The position numbers and the translations under genes were made by a program. Of a stretch of DNA of 64,000 nt, positions 3,001 to 51,058 are shown one piece after another. The stretch lies in assembly GCA_016235065.1 (NCBI GenBank), contig JACRMB010000004.1, forward strand, positions 3,629 through 67,628. The letters run 5' to 3'. Each line of letters starts with the position of its first letter. Position 1 is the stretch's first letter. Source of the DNA: Actinomycetota bacterium (GTDB taxonomy: Bacteria; Actinomycetota; Thermoleophilia; BMS3ABIN01). Below the pieces are notes generated by a model. It saw nothing but the letters and a program-made list of their open reading frames with translations, was not told the DNA's origin and did no database searches.

Positions 3001-6000
3001 CGCTAGCGCCTTCGGTCACCGCCCTGTCGCCGACAGGCGCGCTGGCTTCACCCACTACGACCATATCCGCAAGTCTCTCAGACTCGGGTACCGGTATTAA
3101 TTCAGCAACCGCCCAAGTCTATGTCGAAGGCGGCACCGTCGGAACCTGCAACCGGACGGCCACGTCCGTCAGCTGCCAGGTATCCGGGATGGTCGACGGT
3201 ATCCACAACTACACGGTCACGGTCTCGGATATGGCTGGAAATACTGGAAGCGCTTCAGCCAGTCTGAATATCGATACCGTGGCTCCCGCGGTCTCCAATA
3301 TCCAGCCCTCGGGCACCATAACGACCTCGAGCGCGACCATAAGCGCCTACTATAGCGATACCGGCTCCGGGCTCAACATCTCGACCGCGGTAGTAACGCT
3401 CGACGGCACAGCGCTGACTGGCTGTACCCGTACTTTCTCCGGAGTCAGTTGCCCAGCCACGGGGCTCACGGACGGTATCCATAATATAAGCGTCAGTGTC
3501 CAGGACAATATCACCAACATGGGCACGGGCACCGGTTCGTTCACGGTAACGCTGCCTCAGGCTGACACGACAGCGCCTACTGTTACCAACGTGCAGCCAG
3601 GCGGCACTATTGCGACAGGTACAGCCACAATCAGTGCTTACTACAGCGATTCCGGATCGGGCATCAATAGTGCCACTGCAGCAGTGACTCTCGACGGGAC
3701 CCCGATTACTGGTTGCGTCGCATCTGCCAGCGCGGTCAGCTGCGATGCCATCGGCCTCTCCGAGGGCGCGCACAATATCACAGTCTCCGTCGCCGACAAT
3801 GCCGGGAACACTGGCACTGGCAGCGGCAGCTTCGTGGTCGACAGCGTGATACCGGTGGTAAGCAATGTGATGCCCAACCAGGCCACTAACTCCACGAGCG
3901 CTACGGTCAGCGCCTACTTCAACGACGGTTCCGGCACCGGCATCGACCCCGCTTCGGTGAGAGTCTATCTGGACGACGTACTGATGGCTGGTTGCGCGGT
4001 AAGCACTTCCGACGTCAGCTGCGCTGTCAGCGGTCTCACTGATGGATATCACTCCATCAGGGTGGATGTTCTGGACAATGCCGGCAACAGCGGCCACGGA
4101 ACTGACTCATTCCTGGTAGATACGACTATCCCGGTCATAAGCGACATCCAGCCGAGCGGCACTATCAGTACATCCGCCGCCACAGTAAGCGCGTATCTGA
4201 GCGACTCATGGAGTGACGTAAACGATACGAGCGTAGTTGTAATGCTCGATTCTGTCGCGATAACAGGATGTACGGCCACGAATACTTCCGTCAGCTGCCC
4301 GGTCACCGGCCTGGTTGACGGTTACCATACAATCGACATCTCCGTAGCTGATAACACCGGCAATACCGGTACAGGCACCGGAAGCTTCACGGTGGACACC
4401 ACAGTGCCGGACACGACGCCACCAGTGATCAATAATGTGATGCCGTCTGGCACGATTACGACGACAGGCGCCAACGTCAGCGCTTACCTCAGCGACACTG
4501 GCAGCGGCATCAACACCGCCTCGGTGAGCGTCCAGGTAGACTCCGTAGCCCTCACCGGATGCACGGTATCGGCCTCCAGCGTAAGCTGCGCCGCCACAGG
4601 CCTGGCCGAAGGCGCGCACAACATCAGCGTCACCGCCGCCGACAACGCCGGCAACTCAAGCACCAGCACCGGCAGCTTCACGGTAGACTCCATGAGCCCG
4701 ACCGTAAGCGGCCTGGCTCCGACAGGTCTCGTCAACTTGGCCGACCAGACAATAACCGCCAGCTACTCCGACTCGGGCACCGGCATTGACAGCTCCACCG
4801 CCCAGGTCTATATGGACTCCGGCGTGCTCAGCGGCTGCACAGCAACCGCAACCTCGATCAGCTGCCCGGCTGCAGGACTAGCCGAGGGAGCCCACAGCTA
4901 CACAGTGAGCGTCAGGGACACGGCCGGCAATACCGGCTCGGCTTCGGCCAGCTTCACGGTGGACTCGATCCGCCCGACGGCAGGCAATTTCGCTCCCCAG
5001 GGCTATCTGACCACGACCAGCGCCACGATCACTGCATATATCAGCGATAGCGGCAGTGGAATCGACACAGCGGCTGTCTGGGCTGCGGTCGACGGGGTCC
5101 AGCTCAGCGGCTGTACCGTAACCACATCATCAATATCCTGTCCGGCCACCGGGCTTGCGGAAGGCCATCACATCGTCAGCGTCCGCGTGCAGGATATGGC
5201 CAACAACGGCGACATATACTTCTGGGGTATAGATGTTGACTCCCTGGCGCCGTCCGTGACCGGCCTTTCACCTTATGGGTCGCTCGCTTCACCGATAACA
5301 CGGATATCAGCCAGCTTAAGTGACTCCGGTTCGGGAATAGACAGCGCTACCGCCCAGGTCTATGTAGAAGGCGGTACGGTCTCGAACTGCAGCGCGAGTG
5401 CCACTTCCATCAGTTGTGATGTAGCCGGCATGGCTGACGGCGTCCATTACTACACGGTCAGCGTCAGCGACCTGGCCGGCAACACCGGCACAGCCTCAGC
5501 CAGCCTGCATGTTGACACTGTGGCGCCGACAGTCAGCAATATCCAGCCCAGCGGTACTATCACAACCGATAACGCGACTATCAGCGCCTACTACAGTGAC
5601 GCCGGCGTCGGGCTCAACATATCGACCGCCGTGGTCACCCTGGACGGAACCGCGCTGACCGGCTGCACCCGGACTTTCACCGGAGTCAGCTGCCCGGCCA
5701 CCGGACTTGCCGATGGCGTGCATAACATCACTGTCAGCGTCCTTGATAACATCACCAACGTGGGCACCGGCACCGGCTCGTTCACCGTCGCCATTCCTCA
5801 GGCAGACACGACGGCGCCTTCGGTGACCAATGTCCAGCCAACGGGCACGGTAACGACGGGCACGGCTACGATCAGCGCTGATTACAGCGACGCCGGCAGC
5901 GGCATCAACGCTGCCACAGCCAGGGTATACCTGGACGGAACAGCGCTGACAGGCTGCACGGCTACCGCGACATCGGTTAGCTGTCCAGCATCGGGCCTGA

Positions 6001-7257: not shown

Positions 7258-7674
7258 TTGGAGACATCCGCAGCCATAAGTTTCGAAGTCCATACGGGCC
7301 AGCCGTTCGACCAGGCCATCGAAAGCCTGACGAAGGCACTCAAGGCAGAAAGCTTCGGCATCCTCACCCGCATCGACGTCCACACTACTCTCAAGGAAAA
7401 GCTGGACAAGGATTTTCGCAAGTACGCCATCATCGGAGCCTGTAACCCGCCGCTCGCGCACCGCGCCCTCGAGCACCAGGCGGAAGTAGGTTTGATGCTT
7501 CCCTGCAATATCACTGTCGAGGAAGACCCCAAAGGCGGTTCCATAGTCCGCATAGGCGATCCCGGAGCCATGTTGAAGGGTTTTGGAATGGATCAGGACC
7601 CGGTGCTCGCCGAGGTTGGAGCCGAAGCCCGCAAGCGGCTTGAGCGGGTGGCCAGAGCACTGGAAGCTACATAA
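7258..7674 (+). CDS. DUF302 domain protein
   Basis: TTG start preceded by GGAGGAAG; motifs ILTRIDVHTTLKEKL, YAIIGACNPPLAHRAL and LMLPCNITVEED typical of DUF302. Confidence 0.65.
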   Translation: METSAAISFEVHTGQPFDQAIESLTKALKAESFGILTRIDVHTTLKEKLDKDFRKYAIIGACNPPLAHRALEHQAEVGLMLPCNITVEEDPKGGSIVRIGDPGAMLKGFGMDQDPVLAEVGAEARKRLERVARALEAT

Positions 7675-8809
7675 GCTCCCGCACAAAGAAATCGACTATC
7701 ATCGCGTTGATCTCCTGGCGTGACGGGTCGATCTCTCCACCCTGGGGAACAAAAGCGTGTCCTGCGTTCTTCACCATCACCAGCGTGGCCGGCACTCCGG
7801 CAGCCTTCAGCAGGTCATAGAGCCCCTGGGACTGGTCCGGCGGCACGAGCATGTCTGAGTCGCCCTGCAGTATCAGGAACGGTGGATCGTCCGCGGTGAC
7901 GTAGGTGACCGGGCTAGCGATCTTCAGGATCTCAGAGCCGCTGTCGCTGGTGCCGAACACCCTTGCCCCCAGTGCCTTGCCGATGGCGCCACCCTCGAAT
8001 TCCCGGGTCAGATCCGAGGGGCCGAACATGTCCACGACCGCCTGTACCCGGCTTGATTCATCCTGGTTCCCGCACGATCCCTCGAGACCGTCGTCGTCAT
8101 CCATGACTCCCAGCAGCGATACCAGATGGCCGCCCGCACTGCCGCCCCAGGCGCCGATCCTATCGGGGTCAAGGGCATACTTGCCAGCATTAGCCCGAAG
8201 ATAGCGCAACGCGCATTTAACGTCCTCGATCTGTGCCGGGAACCGGTATTCGGGCGCGAGTCGATAATTGACCGACACCACCAGGAAGCCGGCCTCCTGC
8301 AGGCTGGGGATGGTAGTGGTGCCGGCTCCGTCCTGCTTGTCGCCTTTGGTCCAGCCGCCTCCGTGGACATACATCACCACCGGCACCGGCCCGGCTGCCT
8401 TTAACGGATAATAGATATCCATCTTCAGGTCGACGCCGTTAGCCCTGCCGTAGGTCACGTCACGTTCCACGGTGCCAAGCTTTGCGGGGTCCAGCGGTAC
8501 AAAAGTGCTCGCCGCATCGCCGTCAGATCCGGTGGTCGAAGCGGTCTCTTTGCCAGTCTCAGAATTGCTGCCCGGGCTATCAGTGCCGGCGTCCGCGGTA
8601 GCGCCGGATCCATCGCCGGACAGAACGCCTGCGGAGCTTCTATCTGCGTCAGGATCTCCGCAGCCTGTAACCAGCATTATCAGTACCAGCATCATGAGCA
8701 CCAGCAGCACGACTGCAAGGGAGGTAAGGGCCGTGAATAACCTTCCCGCACGGAGGCCACGCAAAAGTCTCCGCCGGATGATACCGCCCGATGTCAGACC
8801 GGCACTCAC
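7667..8809 (-). CDS. alpha/beta-hydrolase fold esterase/lipase, lipoprotein
   Basis: MYVHGGGWTKGDK (HGGG oxyanion motif) and GGSAGGHL (GxSxG nucleophile elbow); N-terminal hydrophobic segment ending in lipobox LVTGC. Confidence 0.7.
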   Translation of the reverse strand: MSAGLTSGGIIRRRLLRGLRAGRLFTALTSLAVVLLVLMMLVLIMLVTGCGDPDADRSSAGVLSGDGSGATADAGTDSPGSNSETGKETASTTGSDGDAASTFVPLDPAKLGTVERDVTYGRANGVDLKMDIYYPLKAAGPVPVVMYVHGGGWTKGDKQDGAGTTTIPSLQEAGFLVVSVNYRLAPEYRFPAQIEDVKCALRYLRANAGKYALDPDRIGAWGGSAGGHLVSLLGVMDDDDGLEGSCGNQDESSRVQAVVDMFGPSDLTREFEGGAIGKALGARVFGTSDSGSEILKIASPVTYVTADDPPFLILQGDSDMLVPPDQSQGLYDLLKAAGVPATLVMVKNAGHAFVPQGGEIDPSRQEINAMIVDFFVRELM

Positions 8810-10143
8810 TGGCCACCCGCCATCGTCACGATATCCTCGGAAGTGACTACCCGCAGGTTAGCGCTGGCCCAGGCGACCATCTCCTCGTATGCCGCCCAGA
8901 TGGCTTCCTGCTCTTCGGCGGAGCGCACGGTGGAGCTCTCCGGTCTGGTCAGATCGAAGGGAGGCGACAGCGGCCGCGACTTGTCGCCACCGGTGAAGTA
9001 GTAAGCAGTCCAGCCTTCCGGCCCGCTGCGGGCGAAGTTGTTCTCATGGATAAGCGAGGTGATGATCGGCGGGCGGCCGACCGCCGCCGTGTTCCAGCCT
9101 GCGAGACGCTCCTGCAGGTAAGCGGTGGGATCATATTCTCCGGCATTGGGAGTCGTCAGCATGTTCCACCAGAAAGGTTCTTCACCTTTTTTGGACTGAG
9201 CACTTCCCGTGGCATCCCAGCGGGTGATGCTGAAGTCGCTTGGCCGCACCAGCAGGCCGTTCACCCAGACGAACGGCTCTTCCAGGTCCGTCCCTTCCTC
9301 ATGGTAAAGGAGGGTCATGTGTGCGCCGAGGTTGGCATACAGCTGCTGGCCGGCAGCCTTGATCTCGGGGCTCTTGCTGGGAACCGGCGCACAGACAGGG
9401 TCACGCCCGAAAGTGTCAGCAACATATGAATAGCCACCGGGCTGATCGCGCAGGAGGCCGCCAGTCGTCATATCGAGGGCGAAAGTCTCATAGTCTTGGA
9501 GCGTCGCCGCCAGCGCCGTTCCATCCAGGCCTTGCAGGCTCTGGTCGAACCCGGCATAGAGGGGGTGGGGAGGACGCACGTGATAACTGATCGTCATCTC
9601 GCTGTTCTTCAGTCGCTCGATCACATCGGGGCGTTCCCGGCTGTAAGCCTGCACGATCGGCGCAGTCAGATAGAAGTCGCCGCGAACGCCGTATTTCTCA
9701 TAGATGCCGATCAGCCTCAGGATCGTGTCAGCGCTCTCATCCACATGCACGGTGTCATGGACGTTGATCACGAATGTGATATAGCCGGGAGCGGTCTTAT
9801 CGAAGGTCGTGTAGGTGACGCCGCCACCAGCTCCGCCGTCAGTAACGCCATCCATCCCGGCCGATTCGGTGGCGCTGCCGGTCTCATCGGAAACCGCATC
9901 GCTGGTTCCGTCCGGTCCCGCGGCAACATCCGTGCTCGGACCGCCATCCGCCTCTCTGTCGCAGGCGAGAGCTGACAGCAGCAGCATCGCGCTTACCAGA
10001 GACACGAGCAGGAAAAACGTGATGCGCAGCCCGGCGCAAGTACCGCCAACCGTGCTGATACCGCCGGCCGTCACGCTGCTATCGCCACACAGCCGGACTC
10101 TGCGTATTCTGCTCTTCCCGCTCTCTCTGCTCACTCTGATCAC
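8806..10143 (-). CDS. secreted lipoprotein, putative polysaccharide-deacetylase-like hydrolase (paralog 1)
   Basis: GTG start; lipobox LSALAC; TFVINVHDTVHVDES...ISYHVRPPHP His-rich motifs; paralogous to the downstream gene. Family assignment is tentative. Confidence 0.45.
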   Translation of the reverse strand: MIRVSRESGKSRIRRVRLCGDSSVTAGGISTVGGTCAGLRITFFLLVSLVSAMLLLSALACDREADGGPSTDVAAGPDGTSDAVSDETGSATESAGMDGVTDGGAGGGVTYTTFDKTAPGYITFVINVHDTVHVDESADTILRLIGIYEKYGVRGDFYLTAPIVQAYSRERPDVIERLKNSEMTISYHVRPPHPLYAGFDQSLQGLDGTALAATLQDYETFALDMTTGGLLRDQPGGYSYVADTFGRDPVCAPVPSKSPEIKAAGQQLYANLGAHMTLLYHEEGTDLEEPFVWVNGLLVRPSDFSITRWDATGSAQSKKGEEPFWWNMLTTPNAGEYDPTAYLQERLAGWNTAAVGRPPIITSLIHENNFARSGPEGWTAYYFTGGDKSRPLSPPFDLTRPESSTVRSAEEQEAIWAAYEEMVAWASANLRVVTSEDIVTMAGGQ

Positions 10144-11321
10144 GTTTTCGGGTTGACGCCGGGATTGGTCTGCTCCCAGGCTTCATAGGAGTCGGCCATC
10201 TCCGAGAAGGTGGCCCACTGCACTCTTCCGGACGCCACCAGCGGATCGACAACTTCTGCCAGGAACCGGTCGATGACCTCGAACGGATGCTCCGGCTCGC
10301 CGCGGAACTCACCCGGATGGACCGTGAAGTGGAAGACGCTGACGCGGGAAGGATCTGCCTCAGCCTCGGCCAGCGACTGCATCAGGCTCTCTTTGAGAAA
10401 ATCGAAGTATGCCTGGTCGCCGCCCATAGCCCTGGCGGATCCGCCATAGTCGTTCCGTGAGTATGAGCCCTGGGGCAGGTAGACCACGGGACCGTCAGGA
10501 TCATGCGCGGCGAACTGTGAGACGTCGTTGCCGTTCGAGCCTCCGGCAGGCCGCCAGGGATTGATGCCTATCAGGTCGCTGACGGTTGTCTGCTCGTTCG
10601 GATTCTTCCAGTCGCTGTTGACATCGAGGCCGGCGCAGCTGGCCGCGTCGATGAGGCCGGGGTAGAGGTTGCCGCCGCTCCAGTAACGGATGTCTACTTC
10701 ACTGCCGGCGGCCTGCCTGATGAAACCGACCTCCTCCTTCATCACCGCGCACCAGGTCTCTGCAGGCAGTTCGTTGCCGTTCTTGCCCAGATGCGCGTCT
10801 TCATGAAAGTGAAGCGCGATCTCGTGGCCGCTGGCCGCCAGGTCGGAGAGCACGGGATCACCGCTACTGGCCGCGACTGTTGTGAAAGGGGTCTGCGCCT
10901 GCACGGTCATGCTGCCCTGGTGCTTCTCGACGATGGCGGCGACGGATTTTATATCTTCCACGTGCCGCTGGAAGAACTCAGGGTTGTTATAGTCCCCCTT
11001 GTTCGTCCAGGTCGGGCCCGCGGCATTGCCGCCCACGATCGGACTGGGCGAAGCGCCCCGCGGCTCGATATGCATGCCGATACCGAACAGGAGAACGCCG
11101 GCGGACGATGAGGTCGTGGCGCCGGTCGACGTCGATCCCACGGCTGATCCTTCACTGTCTCCAGTTTGCGAGAGACTCTCGTCAGCCGAATCACCCACAG
11201 TCCCTGTGGTGACGATTCCCGCATTCCCATCATCCTGTCCGTTCATAGAACAGGCGACTGAAAGCGAGAGCATGGAAGCGAGCAGCAATATGCCTACTGA
11301 TATCAGAATAATGCGCCGCAT
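10140..11321 (-). CDS. secreted lipoprotein, putative deacetylase/hydrolase-like (paralog 2)
   Basis: AGGAG RBS 10 nt upstream of ATG; signal peptide with lipobox LSVAC; EIALHFHEDAH motif. Confidence 0.45.
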   Translation of the reverse strand: MRRIILISVGILLLASMLSLSVACSMNGQDDGNAGIVTTGTVGDSADESLSQTGDSEGSAVGSTSTGATTSSSAGVLLFGIGMHIEPRGASPSPIVGGNAAGPTWTNKGDYNNPEFFQRHVEDIKSVAAIVEKHQGSMTVQAQTPFTTVAASSGDPVLSDLAASGHEIALHFHEDAHLGKNGNELPAETWCAVMKEEVGFIRQAAGSEVDIRYWSGGNLYPGLIDAASCAGLDVNSDWKNPNEQTTVSDLIGINPWRPAGGSNGNDVSQFAAHDPDGPVVYLPQGSYSRNDYGGSARAMGGDQAYFDFLKESLMQSLAEAEADPSRVSVFHFTVHPGEFRGEPEHPFEVIDRFLAEVVDPLVASGRVQWATFSEMADSYEAWEQTNPGVNPKT

Positions 11322-12594: not shown

Positions 12595-13395
12595 CTAAAC
12601 CGGCCGCATCGTCCCGAAGAACATCTGCCACGCCAGCGCCGACTTGGCCACCAGGCTGAGGATGATATACACCCTCTCACCGTAAAGGTAGTCTTTCCAC
12701 GGCCCGATCTGCCGGTACTGCAGCCACTGGTTCACGGCGAAGATGTTGAAGAAGATGAACAGCGAAACCATGATGCCGTAGACGAAGTCAGGTACTGATG
12801 TATCCGGGTACTGGTTGGACCCGATCGTGTAGAGCGCTATCACCACCCAGGGGATGATCCCCGCGAAGCAGCCGAAATAGAACGCGGTCCAGCTTGTCTT
12901 TTCCGTAGTCTGGTTATGCAGCTCCATCATGTAGCCAAAGAAGATCATGCAGGCGTTGATGCAGAAGATGAGGATCAGGCTCGAAAGGTCGTAGACGCCC
13001 ACCAACATGGCGATCAGCACTATCATGATCGACGAGCTCAGCGAATACTCCCACCAGCGCGCCTTGTTGATGTGCTGCTTGAGGTTTGCCACATACCAGT
13101 TGAATCCGAACGAAGCCAGGATGAAGTGCGCCATCGCCGACAGCAGCAGGAAGATGGCAACCATGGGTGCGATGCGCAGGGTATAAGGGTCCTGAAGATT
13201 CTGGACCAGTCTGCCGGAGGAGACATCGAATTTCAGGTAGATAGTCGACACCGGCAGTGAGAAGCTGGTGCTCAGCCACAGCATCAGCACACCCTGGCCC
13301 AGGTGCAGGCAGCCCATGATGAAGTTGAAGCGGCGAAGGCCGCCGTAGGTTATTTTACTGGCGGGCGCGGCGTCTGTAGCTAAGGCGATATTCAT
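12595..13395 (-). CDS. heliorhodopsin (7-TM retinal protein)
   Basis: Strong match to heliorhodopsin 48C12 as recalled: WWEYSLSSSIMIVLIA (TM3 with Glu counterion), FGCFAGIIPWV, VPDFVYGIMVSLFIFFN, GERVYIILSLVAKSALAWQMF (TM7 with retinal-binding Lys); GGGAGG RBS 5 nt upstream of ATG. Confidence 0.85.
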   Translation of the reverse strand: MNIALATDAAPASKITYGGLRRFNFIMGCLHLGQGVLMLWLSTSFSLPVSTIYLKFDVSSGRLVQNLQDPYTLRIAPMVAIFLLLSAMAHFILASFGFNWYVANLKQHINKARWWEYSLSSSIMIVLIAMLVGVYDLSSLILIFCINACMIFFGYMMELHNQTTEKTSWTAFYFGCFAGIIPWVVIALYTIGSNQYPDTSVPDFVYGIMVSLFIFFNIFAVNQWLQYRQIGPWKDYLYGERVYIILSLVAKSALAWQMFFGTMRPV

Positions 13396-41832: not shown

Positions 41833-44800
41833 ATGATAGCAAAGACATCTATTCGCTGTGTTACTGCGGCAGTGCTGTTCATGTTTCTTGTTCTGCTGTA
41901 CGTATCCAGCGTAATGGCAGCGCCCGGGCCGGATATCAGCGGGCTTGTTTCTCCCACACACGCTGATGAGAACACCTGGTACTCGAACAACGATCCTTCG
42001 TTTTCCTGGAGCTCCGCGTTTGAAACCGGCCTGGCAGGTTCGTATTCGACGCCGGGCCATTCATATGATGTCGCTGTTTCGGGCATATATGCATATATTG
42101 CGGATGGGGGTTACGGACTTCGTATAATCAACATCTCCAATCCGGCAAGCCCGACGCTCGCAGGCTTTTACGACACGCCCGCCGCCGCCAGCGGTCTGGA
42201 CATCTCCGGCAGCTATGCTTATGTGGCCGACGATACTAGCCTGCAGATAATCAACATCTCCAACCCGGCCAGCCCGACTCTGGCTGGATCACTTGCGATG
42301 TCCAGCGCCGTCGACGTTGCCGTTTCAGGCGACTTCGCTTACGTCGCCAGCTATGGCTACGGATTGAGAGTCATAGATATTTCGAACCCGGCCAGCCCGG
42401 CGCTCAGGGGAACATTCAATACGCCGGGCATCGCCGTAGGAGTCGCTCTTTCGGGAAATCATGCGTATGTGGCCGACAACAACTCCGGCCTACAGATAAT
42501 CGATGTCACCGATCCGGACAATCCGGCGTTCGCGGGTGCATACAACCCAGGCTATTCATTCTTAGCGGCCAGAGTTTCCGGGACGCTGGCTTATATGGCC
42601 GCAGGCAGTTCGGGCCTTGTCATCGTCGACATCTCTGATCCGGCTAATACGTCACTGGCTGGAGCATACGATACACCGGGCAGTGCTCTCGATGTTGCTG
42701 TTTCAGGAATCTATGCATATATGGCGGATTATTCCTCCGGCCTGCAGATCCTGGATATCTCAAACCCGGCAAATCCGACGCTGGCTGGCTCCTACGCCAC
42801 GTTGCCGGCCAGTTATGCAGAAGACGTCGATGTCTCAGGCAGTTTTGCATACCTGAGCGACTATACCGTCGGCCTGACGATCGTTGAAGCGTCTACGGCC
42901 ACCGGTTATTCCTATATATTCGACCAGAATCCGGCAACGGTACCGGATACTGTTTCCGAGGGGGCCGATACCAGCAAGGCCTACACTGATACCGGCGATG
43001 GCATCTGGTATTTTCATGTAAGGGCAGTGGATCCCCTGGGTAACTGGGGCGCGGCCAGCCATCGTAAAGCGCAGATCGACACCGGAGCACCGGTTATCAC
43101 CAACATCCTGCCTTCGGGCACCATAACCACCGGCGATCCCGCTACCGTACAGGCAGACCTGAGCGACAGCATCTCCGGCATCGACGTCGCCACGGGTTCC
43201 GTCTCAGTTGACGGTACTGAACTGACAGGCTGCGTCGTCAACAGCTCGCTGGTGAGCTGCGATACCAGCTCGGCCGGTTTCGCTGAGGGGGCACACAGCA
43301 TATCGGTGACCGCCTATGACAACGCGGGTAACCCCAATACGGCCACCGGATCCTTCTCAGTCGACTCCATCGCTCCCTCTGTGACCGGCATTCAGCCTGG
43401 TGGCACGATCAACACCACTTCGACGACCATAAGCGCTGATTATAGTGATTCCGGTTCCGGCATCGACTCCGCGACTGCGACAGTCTACCTGGATTCAGTG
43501 CTTGTTACAGGATGCACGGCTGATGCAGTTAGCGTCAGCTGCCCGGTCACGGGGCTGTCTGTAGGAGCCCATTCGATCACAGTGTACGTCAGTGACAATG
43601 CGGGCAACACCGGATCGGGGTCAGGCAGCTTCACCATGACCCTGAGCCGGGACTACTACTGGGGACGTTATGACGGCACCAACAGTCTGGACTGGATCCT
43701 GCTGGGGAATCCGCCTGGTTCATCAGGGAACCTGACATTCGATCTTTATATCAGCACGGATGAGCAGTCACTGGCGCCATTCGTCATACCCGGCTATGGC
43801 GTGGGTGAGGTGCCGCCGGGCCAGTCGATAACTCCGATGTTCAACATGCCACCGGCGGGCCCGGTCAAAGCCTTGTCCACTACGGGCGGTCAGGCTATCG
43901 CTTCCCAGCGCATCCTCTGGAAAAGCAGGTATTTCGAAGAGGTGCCGGGGATCGAGGCAGGAAGCTTGTCCAGCCATTATTACTGGACCTGGTATGACCA
44001 GTTCTCACCAGGATTCTCCCAGGATGAGATCATCGTCGTCAATACCAACACGGAGCCGGTCATGGTGGAGATCTCCTTTACTGATGTGGCTCATCCACCG
44101 GCGGCCGATCCTGTGGACGACACTTTCCCGTTGCAGCCAGCTGGGACTCCCGGAGGCACGGATACCCTGAGACAGAGTTACCCGGGCAAGATGGGCGGCC
44201 CTGTGGAAGTCAAGGCATGGCTGGCTGGCGGTACATACGAGAGCGATCCCAGGAATGTGGTAGCAACCCAGCGGGTGATCAAGGACCAGGGTGCCGCTAC
44301 GGAGCATCTAAACGAGGTCCCCGGCATCCCGGCAGATGATCTCACCAGCGATTACTGGTGGACCTGGTACGACTGGAACAGCTCGGGAGCTTCCAACTGG
44401 GTACTGGTCTCAAATCCCGGCGCTGAAGCAGTCCATGTGGATATCTCATTCAGGAACGACCAGACAGGGACGATTGAGACCCTGGATGCCGACCTGCCCC
44501 CGGCAGCTCCCGGTGTCGCCCCATGGACGCCCAGCTTCGCCGGCAAAAAAGGTGGGCCTGTTGAAGTCAGGGCGTCGCTCGCCAGCGACCATAACCAGCC
44601 GCGTGACGTCATCGCCTCCCAACGATCGGTCTGGACCACATTCTTCGAAGAGGTGCCGGGCTTCGCGGCCTCGCAGCTATCGCCCCGCTATCTATGGACC
44701 TGGTATGACTGGAACAGCGCCGGCTCACAGAACTGGGTGATGGTAGCCAATCCGACCGCGGATACGGTTCACTCCGAGATCTCCTTCAAGGACTCGACTA

Positions 44801-45021
44801 CCGGAGAGACCAGGGGGGACGCCAATGTGATCCTCCAGCCGGCCGGCTCCAACGGGTCCATCAGGTACCTGCGCTTCGACGGATACATGGGAGGGCCCGT
44901 GGAAGTAAAGGCCTACCTGGAAGGCAGCGATTACGTAACCAGTCCGCGTGATGTCATAGCCTCCCAGCGGGTGCTATGGAACGGACAGTTCAATGAGGTG
45001 CTGGGAACTCTGCTGGAGTAG
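41833..45021 (+). CDS. secreted surface protein: LVIVD-repeat beta-propeller, Ig-like domains, and five copies of the shared C-terminal repeat module
   Basis: Signal anchor; repeats GLRIINISNPASP/GLVIVDISDPANT (LVIVD family); two two-Cys Ig-like domains; C-terminal repeats (about 43645..45018) with WTWYD, WVLVSNP, GGPVEV and ASQRVLW. Confidence 0.8.
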   Translation: MIAKTSIRCVTAAVLFMFLVLLYVSSVMAAPGPDISGLVSPTHADENTWYSNNDPSFSWSSAFETGLAGSYSTPGHSYDVAVSGIYAYIADGGYGLRIINISNPASPTLAGFYDTPAAASGLDISGSYAYVADDTSLQIINISNPASPTLAGSLAMSSAVDVAVSGDFAYVASYGYGLRVIDISNPASPALRGTFNTPGIAVGVALSGNHAYVADNNSGLQIIDVTDPDNPAFAGAYNPGYSFLAARVSGTLAYMAAGSSGLVIVDISDPANTSLAGAYDTPGSALDVAVSGIYAYMADYSSGLQILDISNPANPTLAGSYATLPASYAEDVDVSGSFAYLSDYTVGLTIVEASTATGYSYIFDQNPATVPDTVSEGADTSKAYTDTGDGIWYFHVRAVDPLGNWGAASHRKAQIDTGAPVITNILPSGTITTGDPATVQADLSDSISGIDVATGSVSVDGTELTGCVVNSSLVSCDTSSAGFAEGAHSISVTAYDNAGNPNTATGSFSVDSIAPSVTGIQPGGTINTTSTTISADYSDSGSGIDSATATVYLDSVLVTGCTADAVSVSCPVTGLSVGAHSITVYVSDNAGNTGSGSGSFTMTLSRDYYWGRYDGTNSLDWILLGNPPGSSGNLTFDLYISTDEQSLAPFVIPGYGVGEVPPGQSITPMFNMPPAGPVKALSTTGGQAIASQRILWKSRYFEEVPGIEAGSLSSHYYWTWYDQFSPGFSQDEIIVVNTNTEPVMVEISFTDVAHPPAADPVDDTFPLQPAGTPGGTDTLRQSYPGKMGGPVEVKAWLAGGTYESDPRNVVATQRVIKDQGAATEHLNEVPGIPADDLTSDYWWTWYDWNSSGASNWVLVSNPGAEAVHVDISFRNDQTGTIETLDADLPPAAPGVAPWTPSFAGKKGGPVEVRASLASDHNQPRDVIASQRSVWTTFFEEVPGFAASQLSPRYLWTWYDWNSAGSQNWVMVANPTADTVHSEISFKDSTTGETRGDANVILQPAGSNGSIRYLRFDGYMGGPVEVKAYLEGSDYVTSPRDVIASQRVLWNGQFNEVLGTLLE

Positions 45022-45068
45022 ATATCATACTTGTGCGTGTAGTTCTTTCTGCTGCCGAAGGTAGGGAT

Positions 45069-45275
45069 ATGAAGAGAACGGCAGCAATCATGGTGCTTCT
45101 TACGGTACTTGTCTCAACGAGCTTGCTTGTTCCGGCGGCAGCGCTGGCTATCGACAGCTCCCTTTCCTGGCCTGTCCGGGGCTTCGATTATCCATCCTGG
45201 TGGCACGACGAATACCTGGATCAAAGTTCCAGCGTCTCCCTGACCCGCATCGCTTCAACCGGATCGAATGCCTAG
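45069..45275 (+). pseudogene. possible truncated remnant of a secreted enzyme (signal peptide plus ~40 aa only)
   Basis: MKRTAAIMVLLTVLVSTSLLVPAAALA followed by SWPVRGFDYPSWWHDEY, then stop. Confidence 0.2.
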
Positions 45276-45397
45276 ATGGCGCAGGAGACAGGCACAGATT
45301 CCCGGATGGGCAGCAGGTATAAAAAACGAGTTAAAGGGTAGGATACCGGTGTCTTTACCCCTGCCATTAATGGCCCTGGTGAGCCGGAGGACAGGAA

Positions 45398-45613
45398 ATG
45401 ATCAGCAGGCTTCTGGATATCTGCATTGGTGCTATGTTGGTCGCTCTGGTGGCACTGACTGCGCAGCTCGCGTATCTCTACATCCAGCCCGCGGAACTCC
45501 AGGCCGAGCAACTCGCACAGAGGACTTCATCGCATCCAGTGGTTAACGGTCAGGTGATCAGCGAGATGCCTACGGCTGAGTGCATGGTCTGTCACGCCGG
45601 CAGTCTGCCCTAG
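45398..45613 (+). CDS. small TM protein ending in a CxxCH motif (possible N-terminal fragment of a NapC/NrfH-like cytochrome)
   Basis: One TM helix then ...TAECMVCHAGSLP-stop; resembles the membrane anchor plus first heme site of NapC/NirT-type cytochromes but terminates immediately. Confidence 0.2.
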   Translation: MISRLLDICIGAMLVALVALTAQLAYLYIQPAELQAEQLAQRTSSHPVVNGQVISEMPTAECMVCHAGSLP

Positions 45614-45637
45614 CGCTTCCATTCTCGCTATCAACCA

Positions 45638-46186
45638 GTGAGGTGCGTCATTAAGTCGAGCTGCATCAATGCTATTTCCGGATTATTCCTGCTTGTGGCC
45701 CTGCTCTTTGTGCTTGCACTAGCCGGTGAGGCCCAGGCGCAGACGGCGCCTGTGTGCGGCTCCGCCGGCACGCCCACTCCCGGGAGCCTGCATGCCTCGT
45801 TACTGCGGGAACCCCTGTATAACAGCGAAGGCAATTTTCTCAGCATTTCTTGGGAAGGCGCCATTCCACCTATGGAAATATGGATAGATGACGCGCTTTC
45901 CGAAATCACATACGTAAGCAATGGCGGCTCTGGACAGGCCCGAAACGAGCCCGAAACTGCGACGCACGTGGTGGCATTCATCACGCAGGGATACGCGCCA
46001 GTGTGCATAGAGGTGGCTGTCAGTCCTTCAGTGACCCAGGACGCCTATCCCGCAGCGCAGCAGGGCGAGTCTGTGCTACCGTCGACAGGTTTTGACACCA
46101 TCATGTTGCTCGCAGGCCTGTTGACATCCTTGGCTGGTGTCTTTCTGCTGCACCAACGAGCGCAATCACGAGAAAACCCTTTCTAG
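45638..46186 (+). CDS. small secreted protein with C-terminal LPSTG cell-wall sorting signal
   Basis: Signal peptide; C-terminus LPSTGFDTIMLLAGLLTSLAGVFLLHQRAQSR (LPxTG, hydrophobic span, basic tail). Confidence 0.6.
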   Translation: MRCVIKSSCINAISGLFLLVALLFVLALAGEAQAQTAPVCGSAGTPTPGSLHASLLREPLYNSEGNFLSISWEGAIPPMEIWIDDALSEITYVSNGGSGQARNEPETATHVVAFITQGYAPVCIEVAVSPSVTQDAYPAAQQGESVLPSTGFDTIMLLAGLLTSLAGVFLLHQRAQSRENPF

Positions 46187-46197
46187 GAAGGAAATCC

Positions 46198-46254
46198 TGG
46201 TGCCGAAGGTGGGAATCGAATCCACACCGGGGGTGACCCCGACCGGATTTTGAG
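46198..46254 (-). repeat. 57-bp copy of the 3' half of tRNA-Leu(CAA) (anticodon loop to 3' end), candidate distal att site
   Basis: Identical to 50970..51026 except one mismatch; the 5' half of a tRNA is absent here. Confidence 0.75.
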
Positions 46255-46416
46255 TTACGCGTCCGACTTCCCGGTTGTCAACTTAAAGTCCCAGAATAGC
46301 GCTGTAAATTTTGGTTTCAATGCTACGCGCTTCACGGCTTATGCTATCCCTTACTGCTTGGTCCCACGAATTTGGTTGGCAAAATTTGGTGGAAATGAGG
46401 TGAACAAGCAGGAATA

Positions 46417-49400
46417 TCACAAACCTGCACCGACCAACTCGTTGAAGTAGCCTTTCCACAGTACCCTCTGCGAAGCTAGCACATTTGCGGGATTCTCTTT
46501 TGATGACCCGTTCCATTGCCAGGCTCTGACCTGAACGGGTCCGCCGATGATGCCGGGGAAGCGCGGCGTTACTCGCTGGCCGGGCGCCAATACGCCGTGG
46601 TTGGTCGAGTAATAAGGATCTGCGGGATTGGCTGGATCGAGTTTGCCAGGCACTGAGATCTCGTAATAAATAGCGCTAGCGTTCGGGTTTGCGACTAGCA
46701 CCCAGTTGAGCGAGCCGGCCGATTTTTCGTCATACCAAGTCCAGTTCGCGGTTGGTTTAAGGCTATTTAGCGGCACGCCGGCAGTCTCCTCGTAAGAAGG
46801 CCCATAGATCACGATTTGGGAAGTATATATGTTAGCCGGACTGTAACAAGCCTCAGTGGTGTCAAAACAGGCCTTGACCTCAATCGGGCCGTCCATCAAT
46901 TTTTGCGGTGAGCTATCCCACCAAATGGTCGTGCCCGATGGAACGCCGTCGCTACTGGCCATCAGTTGACCGTGCAGGTAAAGAAAAAGATAAACAGGCT
47001 CGGAGTTGGGATTGCCGACAATGACTAGGTCGTTTGCGTTTTGGCTGTCATACCATGGCCACTCGTATTCGTTGCTCAATTTCGAGGCCGCGATGCCGGC
47101 CATTTCGTTAAACGAGTCACCCATCAGGATACGTTCCGAGGCGACGACCTTGCGAGCATCCGCAGAATTATTGGGCGAGCCACCGACCCGGTAGGCTTTG
47201 ACCTCAACTGGTCCACCGCTGTAGGGCCAGGTTGGCGTCCAGGTATCACCCGGCTGGATCACATGCCTATTAACGTAGATATCCGGCACAGGTATTTTGT
47301 TGATGTCTTCAACATTTCGTATAGAAATGTCAACCTCGACAGCTTCCCCATTTTCGGCCGGATTTGCAACCAGAACCCATTCAGAAGTCATGCTGCCGAG
47401 GTAGACCGGCCAATAATAGTGCGTGTCGAGATCATCGTATGAAGTGGACCAGACTTCCTCGAAAGAGTTTCCGAACAGCGAACGCTCGCTCGAGATGCCG
47501 TTACCATACTGGGACATGATCTTGATCGGGCCGCCGAGTCTTTTGTCGTACGAGCGGAACTGCGTTTCCCCATCATTGACACCGATGCCTTGTTCAAGAG
47601 AGTTGGTCTTCATCCAGAAGTCGACGATATTCGTTCCACTGCCAGGCATTTGCGCTGCTAGCAGCCACGTATGACCATAGATATTGTCATACCAGGGGAA
47701 GTAATAATGCATCGGGGTCGAGTATGACCAGTCAGCGGTCTGGGTATTGCCTACAACGTCGCTCACTTCAAGGTGCACGTTTTGAATGCCACAATTAGGA
47801 TTGAAATAAGAGACTTGGTCAACAGAAATCGTTGCCCGAGAAGTAACGACGATTCCATTCACAGTCAGCTTGACTGAATTCGGATTGACTCCCGACTTCG
47901 AGTCAGTATAAGAAGCATTGATTATTGCCGTGCTGGCCCAAACGTTTCCACTCGGGCTCGTTCCTCCTATTTCAGGTTTTGTCGTTTCGACTTCGAAGCT
48001 GCCATTAAGGGTCGCGCTGTTGCCAGCTTTGTCTCGCCCGACTATCAAGAAATCATGGTGTCCGTCTGAAAGGCCCGACGCCTGGCACCTCAACAGAGAT
48101 GAATCAGAGATATCGCAATTGGTAAGCGGCTGGCTGCTACCATCCAGATAAACCGCGCTTGCGGAGCTGTCTGGCCCCGATTGCTGATCGCTCAAAGTTG
48201 CACCGATTACGGTCGCGCTGCCGCTCCAGACTGGAGGAATGGCTTCGGAAATCGCAGGGGGCGCGAGGTCGACGCCGAATGGTGAGTCAGACAGCCCCGG
48301 CGTTCCGTCATTAGTCTCATACGAGATCGTTAGAGAGTGCCAGCCTGCAGAAAAGTCTGAAGTTGAGCAGCTGAGATGAGCGCCGACGAGCGAGCAGCCA
48401 GGCGCTGAGGTATCGTCGATATAAACGGCTACACTGCTCGAATCGATACCCGAACCGTTATCCGTTAGGTCCGCTTCAATCGCTTGGCTGGTCGTACGGA
48501 GCCAGCCTGAAGGGGAGATGTTTTGCGCTTGGAGAACCAGTGGTCCCCATGATGGGGTGATTCGTTCATAAAAAGGATGGCCCAAATCCGCAATGTTGTA
48601 ACAGCCTCCACCCGTTGCTCTTGCTGTGCAAAGAGTGCAGTTGTTGGAGTTATCTTTTTGGATAAATGCAATACTGGTACCATCCGGTGACCACGCGGGT
48701 TGACTATAAAATGGGGACCATGTCCATGTTCGTGTAATCACGGGTTGTGGTTGTGTGCCATCGGGCTTCATCGTATAGATTCCCGAGTCATTTGCATTGA
48801 AATAAACGTAACAGGCAATTTTGGAAGAATCAGGCGCCCAGCTTGGCATCGAATTGAAACTGGCTGGCCATCCATAGACGTTAAGAGCGGTCTGGTTTCC
48901 ACCATCGGGATTAATAAAAAAGATTCCATAAGTACCACTGTTGGCGTTGAAGGCGATCCTGGAACCGTCTGGTGACCAAGCAGGATTCTCGTAGGTACCC
49001 GAATTATTAGTCAGTTGATTCAGCTCACTTCCGTCGGAATTCATTACGTATAGCTTCTGAACACCGAAGCCAACGATTCCAAACGTCCTCGTAAAAGCTA
49101 TGCGGGAACCGTCGGGCGACCAGGTGGGGCTGTCATCGTAATTCGAGCCGAAGGTCAGCTGACTTATGCTCATATCCGATAGTCTGAGAACGTAAATCTT
49201 ATTAGTACCATTTCTGTTGCTGGAAAAAGCTATCTTGCTGCCGTCAGGCGAGAAGGCGGGTGACTGTTCGACCGCGGGGCTATTGGTGATACGAGTTAGG
49301 CCGCTGCGGTCAGGATTTACAGTGTATATCTCAGCATTGCCATCCCTATAAGAAACAAAAGCAATCTTGCCGTTTGGTTTTACAGTGGCATCCGCTGAGG

Positions 49401-49542
49401 ACGACATGGCCAGGATGGCGATTACTGAGAAGAGGAAGATAAACGCAAATGAGGATTTTTGGCGTGCGCTTTCAACGAACCCACCCATTGCGCCTCCAGA
49501 ATCTGGCATATCTGAGAGAAGCTTAATTGAAACGATTGCCAA
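46417..49542 (-). CDS. secreted surface protein: TolB-like beta-propeller, two-Cys Ig-like domains, and four copies of the shared C-terminal repeat module
   Basis: N-terminal signal; GKIAFVSYRDGNAEIYTVNPDRSG-type PD40 blades; Ig-like domains with GC...C pattern; C-terminal repeats (about 46420..47715) with FPWYD, WVLVANP and ASQRVLW. Confidence 0.8.
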   Translation of the reverse strand: MAIVSIKLLSDMPDSGGAMGGFVESARQKSSFAFIFLFSVIAILAMSSSADATVKPNGKIAFVSYRDGNAEIYTVNPDRSGLTRITNSPAVEQSPAFSPDGSKIAFSSNRNGTNKIYVLRLSDMSISQLTFGSNYDDSPTWSPDGSRIAFTRTFGIVGFGVQKLYVMNSDGSELNQLTNNSGTYENPAWSPDGSRIAFNANSGTYGIFFINPDGGNQTALNVYGWPASFNSMPSWAPDSSKIACYVYFNANDSGIYTMKPDGTQPQPVITRTWTWSPFYSQPAWSPDGTSIAFIQKDNSNNCTLCTARATGGGCYNIADLGHPFYERITPSWGPLVLQAQNISPSGWLRTTSQAIEADLTDNGSGIDSSSVAVYIDDTSAPGCSLVGAHLSCSTSDFSAGWHSLTISYETNDGTPGLSDSPFGVDLAPPAISEAIPPVWSGSATVIGATLSDQQSGPDSSASAVYLDGSSQPLTNCDISDSSLLRCQASGLSDGHHDFLIVGRDKAGNSATLNGSFEVETTKPEIGGTSPSGNVWASTAIINASYTDSKSGVNPNSVKLTVNGIVVTSRATISVDQVSYFNPNCGIQNVHLEVSDVVGNTQTADWSYSTPMHYYFPWYDNIYGHTWLLAAQMPGSGTNIVDFWMKTNSLEQGIGVNDGETQFRSYDKRLGGPIKIMSQYGNGISSERSLFGNSFEEVWSTSYDDLDTHYYWPVYLGSMTSEWVLVANPAENGEAVEVDISIRNVEDINKIPVPDIYVNRHVIQPGDTWTPTWPYSGGPVEVKAYRVGGSPNNSADARKVVASERILMGDSFNEMAGIAASKLSNEYEWPWYDSQNANDLVIVGNPNSEPVYLFLYLHGQLMASSDGVPSGTTIWWDSSPQKLMDGPIEVKACFDTTEACYSPANIYTSQIVIYGPSYEETAGVPLNSLKPTANWTWYDEKSAGSLNWVLVANPNASAIYYEISVPGKLDPANPADPYYSTNHGVLAPGQRVTPRFPGIIGGPVQVRAWQWNGSSKENPANVLASQRVLWKGYFNELVGAGL

Positions 49543-49715
49543 TGATAACTGTAATAAGTGGCTTAGTCAAAATTCTGAGATCTGGCAATAAGCTAAGAAT
49601 GACCCATTATTGAAGCCCAATCATTGTAACGTCGTGCTACGCGGCTCATTAATCACCAGGGTCCGGGCGACCGCTGTCGACGACTATCTCTAGTTCTCCC
49701 ACACTATGATTGTTC

Positions 49716-49944
49716 TCAGGCGGCAGACAGCTTTCTTACCTTGAGATTCTTGCGATTCTGTTCGGCCAGCCACAGATCGTACTGCGTCTGCTGATTGAGC
49801 CAGCTCTCCGCCGAAGCTCCGAAGGCTATCGAAAGCCGTATAGCCATTTCCGGACTGATCCCAGCCCGGCCGTTGAGAATTGCCGAAAGCGTCTTGCGGC
49901 TGACACCGAGAGCATCCTACGCCCTTCAAGAACTTCTCGGGCAT
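49716..49944 (-). pseudogene. higA-like (HTH_XRE) antitoxin gene disrupted by frameshift / internal deletion
   Basis: One frame gives the start MPEKFLKGV...; a second frame, entered after in-frame stops, gives [53 protein letters not shown], a typical HigA HTH core; no toxin ORF in the adjacent 235 bp. Confidence 0.55.
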
Positions 49945-50181
49945 TCAGACCCTAAACAACGATGGTCTATGTGACAAGCCCAGGTTTTTGATGCCAGTCC
50001 ATAGTTTAGGCCGGGCGTCTGTATGTGAGAGGAACCTGGGATGATATACCGTTGGCAGGCCGATTTCGGCTTAAACGGAACCCCTGACTCTTCCCTTAAA
50101 GCGAAGTATGCCGGTAATCACCACAAAAATATCGAGGACGCACCGGGTGCGCCCTCGGGCTAATCAGTTTATCTGATGCTG

Positions 50182-50688
50182 CTAGGCCTTACGGCGATTC
50201 TTCCTGAAGGTCGCTGCCCCCAAACCACCCAGAACCAGCCCTGCCGCCGGCAATAGCAGCATGAAGCCCGTGCTAGGCAGAGTGGCGGGCAATGAAGCTG
50301 GTGCGTATGCGTTCTGTTGCACGCTCTCTGTCACAGTGAAAGTCTCCGGGCACGCAATATCAATATCTTCGCTATCTGTTCCTTCAACGATGATGTTGTG
50401 GCTGCCCACAACAGCATCGGCTGGTATTGTCAGGACATCATTGAAATTTCCGGAGCCGTCACTAGTCGTTATGCCCAGTAGTGTAGTGCCGCTGACAGTG
50501 TCAAAGAACAATCCTAATAAATCACTGCTCCTTGCCCCGGAACCGCTATAGCTAACAGAGCTCCCGGCTGGCCCCTGGTTGGGGGTCAGGGTGAAACTTA
50601 CAGTGCCGCACGCGCTTTGAGCATAGGCCATGGGAGCTAAGGCAAGCGTAAAAAATATAGCTACAACTAATGCGACAACTTTCTTCAT
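50182..50688 (-). CDS. small secreted protein with C-terminal LPSTG cell-wall sorting signal
   Basis: Signal peptide MKKVVALVVAIFFTLALAPMAYA; C-terminus LPSTGFMLLLPAAGLVLGGLGAATFRKNRRKA. Confidence 0.6.
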   Translation of the reverse strand: MKKVVALVVAIFFTLALAPMAYAQSACGTVSFTLTPNQGPAGSSVSYSGSGARSSDLLGLFFDTVSGTTLLGITTSDGSGNFNDVLTIPADAVVGSHNIIVEGTDSEDIDIACPETFTVTESVQQNAYAPASLPATLPSTGFMLLLPAAGLVLGGLGAATFRKNRRKA

Positions 50689-50969
50689 GATGATTCCCCT
50701 TCTCCGTTTGTCCAGAATGATTTCGGTCCTGTTTTTTTAATTTTTTTGCCGGCAGCTAATCAAGGTCGGCAAACCAAAAAAATTATTTGACCATTGTATA
50801 CTTATTTCCCCTGGATGATATAAAACTGGCGATAGCCAGAGAGGTGGCTGGGTTTGTTTGGACAGCAAAATGCTTTTTTATAAGTGGCAAGAAGTCCCCT
50901 GTTCATGCCGTCATCTCATTGGCGAGCGTAGGGCAATAGACCTCATCTGGTGTTCTCCTGCTCAGATTC

Positions 50970-51058
50970 TGGTGCCGAAGGTGGGAATCGAACCCACACC
51001 GGGGGTGACCCCGACCGGATTTTGAGTCCGGCGCGTCTGCCAGTTCCGCCACTTCGGC
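50970..51058 (-). tRNA. tRNA-Leu (anticodon CAA), CCA encoded
   Basis: Minus-strand sequence GCCGAAG-TG-GCGGAACTGGCAGACGCG-CCGGA-CTCAAAA-TCCGG-long variable arm-TGGGTTCGATTCCCACCTTCGGCACCA; 7-bp acceptor stem pairs GCCGAAG/CTTCGGC; anticodon loop CUCAAAA; long variable arm (class II). Confidence 0.85.

Follow-up and report, generated by a model that had tools for sequence, protein, structure and literature searches.

The closest described counterparts of the locus analyzed here are the tandem ssrA islands of Dehalococcoides, of which 15 lack an integration module and were interpreted as cis-mobilizable elements (CIMEs) (McMurdie et al. 2011, PMC3146451). We studied a 64,000-nucleotide stretch of Thermoleophilia DNA (Actinomycetota bacterium, assembly GCA_016235065.1, contig JACRMB010000004.1, forward-strand positions 3,629 to 67,628; hereafter the window) in which the 3′ part of a tRNA-Leu(CAA) gene is directly repeated 4.7 kb away. 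The segment between the two copies is probably an integrase-less cassette of the cis-mobilizable type, one unit of an accretion array made by a tyrosine integrase. Our statements on repeats, composition and gene content cover the full window unless a narrower range is given. As in Dehalococcoides, a single small-RNA gene has a stack of units downstream of it, and direct repeats of the 3′ end of this gene bound each of them; both systems also have conserved sequence by the repeats, strain-variable content and many islands that lack an integration module yet are apparently mobile. The Dehalococcoides islands differ by a 20-bp ssrA repeat and a CcrB-like serine recombinase that about half of them have kept (PMC3146451), whereas the present arrays have a 62-nt tRNA repeat that starts at the anticodon loop and includes the 3′ end, a pattern typical of tyrosine integrases, smaller cassettes, and a recombinase in 0 of ~23 cassettes.

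Other known systems share parts of this organization. The Prochlorococcus islands built by tycheposons contain partial tRNAs at scattered positions (Hackl et al., bioRxiv 10.1101/2020.12.28.424599). The likeness to our locus extends to tRNA genes as island seeds, older elements pushed outward, partial tRNAs marking older integrations and an adaptive cargo, but tycheposons carry their own tyrosine recombinase and replication genes (helicase and primase) and live in a different host phylum. No tyrosine recombinase, helicase or primase domain was found in the window or the related cassettes, and the arrays are not tycheposons because these hallmark genes are missing. Classical phages and islands that integrate in the anticodon loop of tRNA genes (lambda-type) show the same identity block from the anticodon loop to the 3′ end, a direct repeat at the far end and conserved flanking arms with tandem short repeats at a fixed distance; unlike them, the present cassettes have no int or xis gene, are far below a self-sufficient size and are stacked several units deep. 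Sublocation classes of tRNA integration sites were reportedly described by Williams in 2002.

Chromosomal integrons resemble the locus in their array of small, mostly co-oriented cassettes between copies of a recombination site, in their toxin–antitoxin (TA) cassettes and in an order that varies between relatives. They differ in having intI, attI and the promoter Pc at the array end and hairpin-type attC sites, whereas the present cassettes have upstream regions of their own, may hold several genes in both orientations and are separated by a tRNA 3′ half with a nonpalindromic arm. We found no intI with attI and a promoter at the array ends, the tRNA-end neighbors being Lcl_C, a 90-aa Zn-ribbon protein and metallophosphoesterases and the distal ends varying, and no imperfect palindromic sites of the attC type between cassettes; lacking intI, attI and attC, the arrays are not integrons. 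From the islands of Dehalococcoides and Prochlorococcus they differ in host clade, in target tRNA, in having small units and in that no recombinase at all occurs in our sample. They form a lineage-wide array of integrase-less cassettes with a defined repeat core, arm and motif, still within a known kind of system.

ARAGORN and Rfam (RF00005, 60.7 bits) agree on a single tRNA in the window, an intact tRNA-Leu(CAA) at 50970–51058 on the minus strand, which marks the anchor, attB-derived end of the array and whose 5′ half has the same sequence in 12 related loci. A repeat search found 46194–46255 and 50966–51027 to be direct repeats of 62 nt with 97% identity and a spacing of 4772. The tRNA-proximal attachment (att) core at 50966–51027 (nhmmer profile, E = 1e-23) comprises 58 nt of the tRNA and 4 nt past the CCA: in tRNA sense it starts with the final base of the anticodon stem's 5′ arm and spans the anticodon loop, variable arm, T arm, acceptor 3′ strand and CCA before the 4 additional nucleotides. 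The distal att core at 46194–46255, recovered by both the repeat search and the profile, lacks the 5′ half and has two mismatches. One of these (46221 T versus 50993 C) corresponds to G53 of the T stem and would disrupt the conserved G53–C61 pair in the distal copy, while the other (46196/50968) lies beyond the tRNA. A 58-nt pattern allowing up to three mismatches matched only the two cores in the window and nothing in 100 shuffles. On either side of the repeat the in-register identity drops at once to background (~0.25), which rules out the longer duplication that a 19-nt match at the same 4772 offset (family D12) had suggested. The initial annotation had described a repeat of 57 bp with one mismatch; the repeat and its orientation are real, and the alignment of both copies with their flanks, which it had called for, extends it to 62 nt with two mismatches and sharp edges.

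The segment between the cores covers 46256–50965 (4,710 bp). Its G+C content, 0.510 against a window median of 0.583, is the minimum among all 4.7-kb windows, and the third-position G+C (GC3) of its two intact genes, 0.54–0.56, is below the 0.63–0.89 of 18 other genes in the window. The lower G+C first noted by eye is thus borne out by computation, and GC3 is lowest here as well. The segment accordingly has the atypical composition of a tRNA-integrated island, with the intact tRNA at one boundary and at the other the co-oriented 3′ repeat ending at the anticodon loop. An integrase inside the element is missing: as the initial annotation had stated, Pfam scans found no recombinase or integrase domain in any open reading frame (ORF) of the segment or of the 64-kb window, and the segment holds no int, xis, relaxase or conjugation genes. 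Attachment sites flanking a unit without integration or transfer genes characterize a CIME; here cores lie on both sides, an arm with its motif on one side and a degenerate arm on the other. As units without any recombinase, the cassettes fit the definition of CIMEs or satellite cassettes.

We collected relatives of the locus in three ways: by an exact scan for the 58-nt core in species-representative genomes and Joint Genome Institute (JGI) metagenomes, from contigs with homologues of the neighboring metallophosphoesterase and from contigs with HigA homologues. The resulting set of 19 loci (278 kb) comes nearly all from Thermoleophilia metagenome-assembled genomes (MAGs), some of them labelled "Actinobacteria". 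Most loci that reach the tRNA side share its right flank, with a 90-aa Zn-ribbon protein, one or more metallophosphoesterases, phosphoenolpyruvate synthase and the his operon. A profile built from the core gave 39 matches in the 19 loci, 12 of them true tRNAs and ~26 extra copies outside tRNA genes. All extra copies have the orientation of the tRNA, and in every one the identity with the tRNA ends at the anticodon loop or, in a second arm family, 8 nt further. Their number per tRNA site ranges from 0 to 4. The cores, 90–100% identical within a genome, delimit ~23 cassettes of 0.6–4.7 kb each and mostly carry the variable-arm variant of the host's own tRNA, with one exception (L035:8179) that has the window-type variant. 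Ten contigs run unbroken through the arrays and still contain no integrase. A search for hidden recombinases among the unannotated cassette proteins (relaxed Pfam and PHROGs scans) returned none; an excisionase-like HTH_17 gene in one L010 cassette was the sole vestige of a recombination module. Of two more distant relatives, L036 has the tRNA without an extra copy within 7.5 kb, and in L026 the gene of a 1034-aa protein with the C-terminal module described below ends 8 nt from the tRNA, with a 17-nt core remnant further out.

The sequence beside the non-tRNA cores is conserved as well. To the right of these cores, as oriented in the window, about 150 nt can be aligned between genomes and between cassettes whose cargo is unrelated, and the conserved arm itself measures ~135 nt. 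In the window this arm ("P-prime", family A) lies beside the distal core at 46256–46400 on the plus strand and aligns with arms in L008, L012, L015, L016, L028 and others, the family being found beside ~20 other non-tRNA copies. Its most conserved block is GAATTTGGTTGGCAAAATGTTGGCAGAAAC, a tandem 11-nt unit; the window has the motif TTGGCAAAA at 46376–46384, 122 nt from the core, followed by a degenerate second unit at 46386–46395. Within 200 nt of cores, a total of 15.4 kb, the pattern T[TG]GCAAA was counted 31 times, compared with 64 times in the other 260 kb, an 8-fold enrichment (Poisson, 2e-18). In 14 copies, that of the window among them, the motif is found +120 to +122 from the core, often with a second occurrence at +132; ~7 copies have it on the opposite side, at −68 to −91, and its orientation is nearly always that of the core. 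The tandem TTGGCAAAA units are candidate arm-type binding sites of a recombinase: a short motif repeated at fixed distance on both arms would match the arm-type sites of lambda-family tyrosine integrases, and the ~135-nt arm with its tandem units at a fixed distance from the core has the architecture expected for a lambda-type (heterobivalent) enzyme. We set aside a reading of TGGCA-N-GGCA as a sigma-54 promoter, as the motif is an 11-nt direct repeat present on both sides of the core. To our knowledge, Actinobacteria generally lack RpoN.

Evidence for movement of cassettes comes from the loci L030 and L038, which are ~99% identical in their shared DNA. The left flank of the L030 tRNA equals that of the distal copy in L038 and its right side that of the L038 tRNA, so that L038 amounts to L030 with 5.4 kb added, a block of three cassettes that has a duplicated core as its boundary. 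The block, inserted exactly at the core, contains no recombinase, and the two loci represent the empty and the occupied state of the site. As judged from sequence identities, the similarity of cassettes between genomes is also far above that of core genes or discordant with it. The L039 higBA cassette shares 86.6% identity with its L028 counterpart (core genes 68–72%) but only 75.6% with the one in L038 (core genes 86%), brnTA is 95% identical between L039 and L038/L030 against 86% for core genes, and seen from the tRNA higBA and brnTA follow each other in opposite order in L038 and L039. In the window, the cassette of a 182-aa LPSTG protein (45621–46256) shows 94% nucleotide identity to an L028 cassette flanked by two att copies; the third-codon identity is 0.91 compared with 0.49–0.69 in ten syntenic core genes, and the core genes of the genome sharing it are just 71–88% identical to those of the window. 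Together with the envelope-type cargo of the relatives (FG-GAP/Ig, LGFP, PQQ, NosD and LPSTG proteins), this agrees with the suggestion of the initial annotation that envelope proteins are exchanged on such elements. The search of related genomes that it proposed gave the empty/occupied pair for another block, L036 without a repeat and L026 with a core remnant alone, and no intact version with an integrase. We encountered neither of the two outcomes that it had named as contrary to its reading: relatives with the same gene order and no repeat, or a degraded second tRNA gene.

These observations suggest the following course of events. The segment at 46256–50965 would have entered, or been assembled, by site-specific recombination in the anticodon loop of tRNA-Leu(CAA). 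An incoming circle would bring its own copy of the stretch between the anticodon loop and the 3′ end of the tRNA, recombination would rebuild the tRNA with the element's copy, and the previous 3′ half would be displaced downstream, to 46194–46255. Repeated events would stack cassettes outward from the tRNA, and continued exchange would need an integrase acting in trans, co-mobilization with an incoming element, or homologous recombination between cores. Attachment-site architecture is an established basis for distinguishing the action of tyrosine and serine recombinases, and a 62-nt block ending in the anticodon loop with complex arms points to the former. The first description of the repeats as attL and attR of a tyrosine-integrase element thus holds for the att sites, backed by the co-oriented copies, the conserved arms and the L030/L038 pair, while the class of the enzyme is what the site architecture suggests. 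Likewise, the remnant of a tRNA-integrated element seen there is indeed an att-bounded island remnant, not a lone decayed element but an internally rearranged unit of a multicassette array.

Several results weigh against this account. Neither the ~23 cassettes nor the surroundings of any core contained an integrase (Pfam tables and scans, relaxed Pfam and PHROGs), so that with the window also devoid of one the central actor is missing. The 58-nt core had no match in viral contigs, arm motifs gave there either no match or nine chance matches without a tRNA or att site nearby, gapped core patterns had no match either, and phage and plasmid records contained neither core nor arm, apart from an irrelevant Legionella match. 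A cognate integrase-bearing element using the same att sites was found neither in the 19 loci, searched with 10-kb flanks in MAG or short-read assemblies, nor in the viral contigs or the phage and plasmid records. The window's own 4.7-kb segment occurs in no relative, and the sample, which holds no species-level relative, gave no species-level empty site. In L039, higB begins 18 nt past a core, and stop codons of higA and surface-protein genes lie 4–10 nt before the next core; with some cassettes nearly devoid of an arm, arm sites are not universally required. Finally, we found no significant inverted repeats at plausible inversion ends within the segment, and the rearrangement of its interior could not be reconstructed.

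An alternative that would dispense with the enzyme is that the present gain, loss and shuffling of cassettes depend on RecA: the 62-nt cores would undergo homologous recombination, with incoming DNA also by double crossovers, and the original integrase would be long gone. The cores exceed the minimal length for efficient homologous recombination. Their near identity within each genome, the homogenization of the copies to the host's own tRNA variant and the existence of cassettes without arms all agree with this idea, and the difference between L030 and L038 could equally be a deletion between direct repeats. It leaves unexplained, however, how the tRNA half was first duplicated, why a ~135-nt arm with an 11-nt tandem motif is kept at a fixed distance across unrelated cargo, and why identity constantly stops at the anticodon loop, and we regard it as improbable. 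Somewhat less probable still is an integron-like platform in which tRNA-Leu(CAA) serves as an acquisition site and minimal cassettes of one to five genes, not products of decay, are captured, excised and reshuffled by a recombinase encoded elsewhere. It seems doubtful that Thermoleophilia keep such a capture platform, with envelope and TA cassettes that have a 62-nt core and a ~135-nt arm with tandem TTGGCAAAA and are exchanged between lineages without an integrase of their own; the recombinase would be of the heterobivalent tyrosine type, encoded elsewhere in the genome and acting on the cassettes in trans, which we likewise think unlikely. The unbroken integrase-free arrays, the small size of the cassettes, several of which are a single TA pair (higBA, brnTA, MNT/HEPN) as in chromosomal integrons, the arm motif at fixed distance, the same cassette at different array positions across genomes and the discordance between the phylogenies of cassettes and core all speak for a platform. 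Its recombinase was identified neither in the sample nor at either array end, the distal array flanks are not conserved, and the excisionase-like gene of one cassette and the decayed and partial cores fit ordinary decay of an element. The absence of an integrase is itself weak evidence because MAG assemblies tend to lose, or break at, active mobile elements, and known integrase-less tandem islands (PMC3146451) require no new category.

Two further explanations concern the repeat itself rather than its history. The copy at 46.2 kb might be a second, duplicated tRNA-Leu gene that has lost its 5′ half, unrelated to integration, and by eye the flanking stretch GACGCG...GGAAG loosely resembles a tRNA 5′ half. 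This likeness is at chance level, as 23–34% of random sequences score as high against the tRNA 5′ half as the 45-nt flank does. Even with the threshold relaxed to E ≤ 10 the distal copy yields no tRNA, and neither acceptor nor D arm of a 5′ half remains. The flank belongs instead to the arm family seen by ~20 other non-tRNA copies, and the ~26 extra copies all end at the same position. We therefore reject a degraded second tRNA gene as hardly credible, in accordance with the original observation that the 5′ half is not repeated. Nearly as implausible is a repeat-induced chimeric join in the MAG contig. The short-read (Logan) contigs of three runs all end within the repeat or beside it, as an artifact would have it, but they independently confirm with 100% identity the passage from the left flank to the distal core (L004) and that from the distal core across the whole island to the tRNA core (L005), and more than 10 separate assemblies of related genomes show this architecture as well. 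Sought for empty-site or circular junctions, these contigs are uninformative, since all of them break in the repeat. Their ends at window positions 50998 (L005) and 51031 (L001–L003) are a few bases off the break expected of a two-copy k = 31 graph, and the samples would thus hold further sequences sharing parts of the tRNA, such as other strains, other tRNA-Leu genes or further att variants.

These results identify tRNA-Leu(CAA), with its signature of core, arm and motif, as a conserved hot spot at which the genomes of Thermoleophilia vary, an actinobacterial class that has been little studied and remains for the most part uncultured; cell-envelope proteins and TA pairs are apparently traded there as small units. 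As the TIGER/Islander resource states explicitly, most island-finding software requires an integrase inside the island (PMC12424338), and arrays like the present one are therefore systematically missed. Were a trans-acting recombinase to exist and be identifiable, it would provide a compact site-specific integration tool for the Thermoleophilia clade and a test case for the spread of integrase-less cassettes.

The cassettes of the relatives are diverse in cargo. Besides TA systems (higBA, brnTA and an MNT/HEPN pair) and envelope-type proteins (LPSTG, FG-GAP/Ig with LGFP, PQQ propeller and NosD beta-helix proteins), they encode a catalase, an ABC1 kinase, a nitroreductase, a flavodoxin-like protein, an extracytoplasmic function (ECF) sigma/anti-sigma pair, a radical-SAM/SPASM cluster and one Y1 transposase. 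TA pairs (MNT/HEPN, HigBA, BrnTA) occur as single-operon cassettes of 0.6–0.9 kb between att copies at L015 1909–2551, L028 3738–4311, L039 9715–11019 and L030 4688–5162. The cassette-type HigA is 86% identical to one in a Halomonas genome, which indicates that the HigBA module travels widely. In L013, an ORF resembling OrfA of IS3-type transposases (MNTRKRYPKELKERAVRMV...) begins immediately past the arm of an att copy (~100–170, minus-strand orientation).

Both cargo genes first annotated in the window's own segment are present between the cores. The larger, at 46417–49542 on the minus strand, encodes a secreted protein of 1041 aa, or 1023 aa according to the gene caller, the start being probably at 49488 (GC3 0.556; identified by Pfam, NCBIfam and module analysis). 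It consists of a signal peptide, a PD40/TolB-like beta-propeller, Ig-like domains and a C-terminal module of ~430 aa with four beta-sandwich repeats of ~105 aa each. We looked for near-identical copies of this cargo elsewhere; the best homologue of the C-terminal module is merely 53% identical and thus gives no evidence of very recent transfer of the gene. The other gene (50182–50688, minus strand) encodes a secreted protein of 168 aa with an LPSTG sortase signal and membrane anchor, recognized by translation and a weak LPXTG_anchor match; it is 37% identical to a cargo protein in an L008 cassette and is followed by a strong terminator-like hairpin at 50133–50157. The initial annotation mentions one LPSTG protein, and the window contains a second one, of 182 aa (45638–46186), just outside the segment in a neighboring cassette. 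Upstream of the 168-aa gene and including its upstream region, the AT-rich left ("P") arm of the cassette extends over 277 bp (50689–50965), where a left-arm alignment revealed only degenerate copies of the arm motif, AGCAAAA and TGGCAAGAA, ~75–95 nt from the core.

Between the two genes, at 49702–49916 on the minus strand, lies the remnant of a higA antitoxin gene (HTH_3, E = 1.5e-7), previously taken for a frameshifted gene. The sequence is higA-like, and it is better described as a 5′-truncated remnant of ~70 C-terminal codons with stop codons ahead, the N terminus and higB being lost. It is 86–88% identical at the nucleotide level to higA of L007 and L028, in reverse orientation, and inverted relative to every intact higBA cassette of the relatives. 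The remnant has kept the junction of stop codon and att core: the homology passes the stop codon into the first bases of the core (AACAATCATAGTG versus AAACAATCCTGGTG) and then breaks off, marking it as a fragment of another cassette that was incorporated and truncated. We considered an inversion of the segment interior between inverted repeats and found none that was significant at plausible ends, nor any arm-like sequence beside the inverted higA junction. To judge from the inverted, truncated higA and the degenerate left arm, the cassette at 46256–50965 is partly decayed and rearranged. The idea of a recombinase-in-trio in three overlapping genes at 7667–11321 was dismissed, as Pfam identifies an esterase and two proteins of no known family, none of them a recombinase.

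The window holds at least two cassettes, 46256–50965 and 45069–46193. Outward from the tRNA the array reads core (50966–51027), cassette 1 (46256–50965), core (46194–46255), cassette 2 (45069–46193), a possible remnant (45045–45067) and the gene of a 1062-aa protein. Cassette 2, on the plus strand, neighbors the first, is older and ends at the distal core; it contains two small secreted or membrane ORFs and the gene of the 182-aa LPSTG protein. At the start of this gene (45638–45655), the ATG of L028 (2944) is ATT in the window, so that the ORF can start only at an upstream GTG, and its expression may be impaired here. The remnant at 45045–45067, the best subthreshold nhmmer match (E = 0.13), consists of 22 nt of the acceptor and part of the T stem in the right orientation, just past the 1062-aa gene, whose stop codon is 25 nt away. 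Marginal on its own, this possible decayed att core gains some support because the arrangement of a module-protein stop codon followed by an att core recurs in L016 and twice in L026. The gene itself (41833–45021, plus strand) encodes a secreted LVIVD/Ig protein with the same C-terminal module as the 1041-aa protein, by Pfam and module homology. By analogy with the positions seen in L016 and L026, it may be cargo of an even older cassette, for which no left boundary was found. The core profile detected no older core remnants left of 45 kb in the window. Short core-like pieces of 17–24 nt that comprise the acceptor 3′ strand and the T stem and loop and end at the T loop occur at 45045–45067 in the window, 5173–5203 in L010 and 4920–4936 in L026; these may be decayed 62-nt cores or att sites of a second class of elements crossing over in the T loop of the same tRNA.

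Further to the left, a purH-like gene seems to be the conserved left anchor of the variable zone, at 27 kb from the tRNA in the window (24026–50970), ~7.5 kb in L026 (746–8210) and ~9 kb in L035 (251–9320), the interval varying in size and content. In the window it also holds an 883-aa PD40 module protein, an MMPL transporter, a hybrid kinase, an ABC-2 transporter and glycosyltransferases. The purH–tRNA interval may be an old accretion zone with decayed cores.

The second arm family, family B, was found three times in L010 and in L011 and is conserved over ~100 nt. At L010 7751–7839, ARAGORN calls a tRNA-Leu(CAA) with a 5′ half unlike the sequence common to all 12 true genes and an acceptor stem that pairs poorly; from its sequence, we take this to be a core with a family B arm mimicking 8 more nucleotides of the tRNA. 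In L011 (5584–6016), a family B arm accompanies a lone copy of the tRNA-Leu(CAA) 3′ half. Housekeeping genes surround this copy, an intact tRNA-Leu(GAG) precedes it by 280 nt and a terminator comes after it; either integration took place here at a secondary site or the E14 bin.89 genome has been rearranged.

Two features of the window lie far from the array. A 2353-aa ORF at 27–7088 on the plus strand contains ~20 Ig-like repeats, at most 60% identical to one another and related to the middle of the 1062- and 1041-aa proteins. A heliorhodopsin gene at 12595–13395 on the minus strand (Pfam PF18761, E = 9e-103) adjoins a TfoX-like gene and a LexA/DinB pair.

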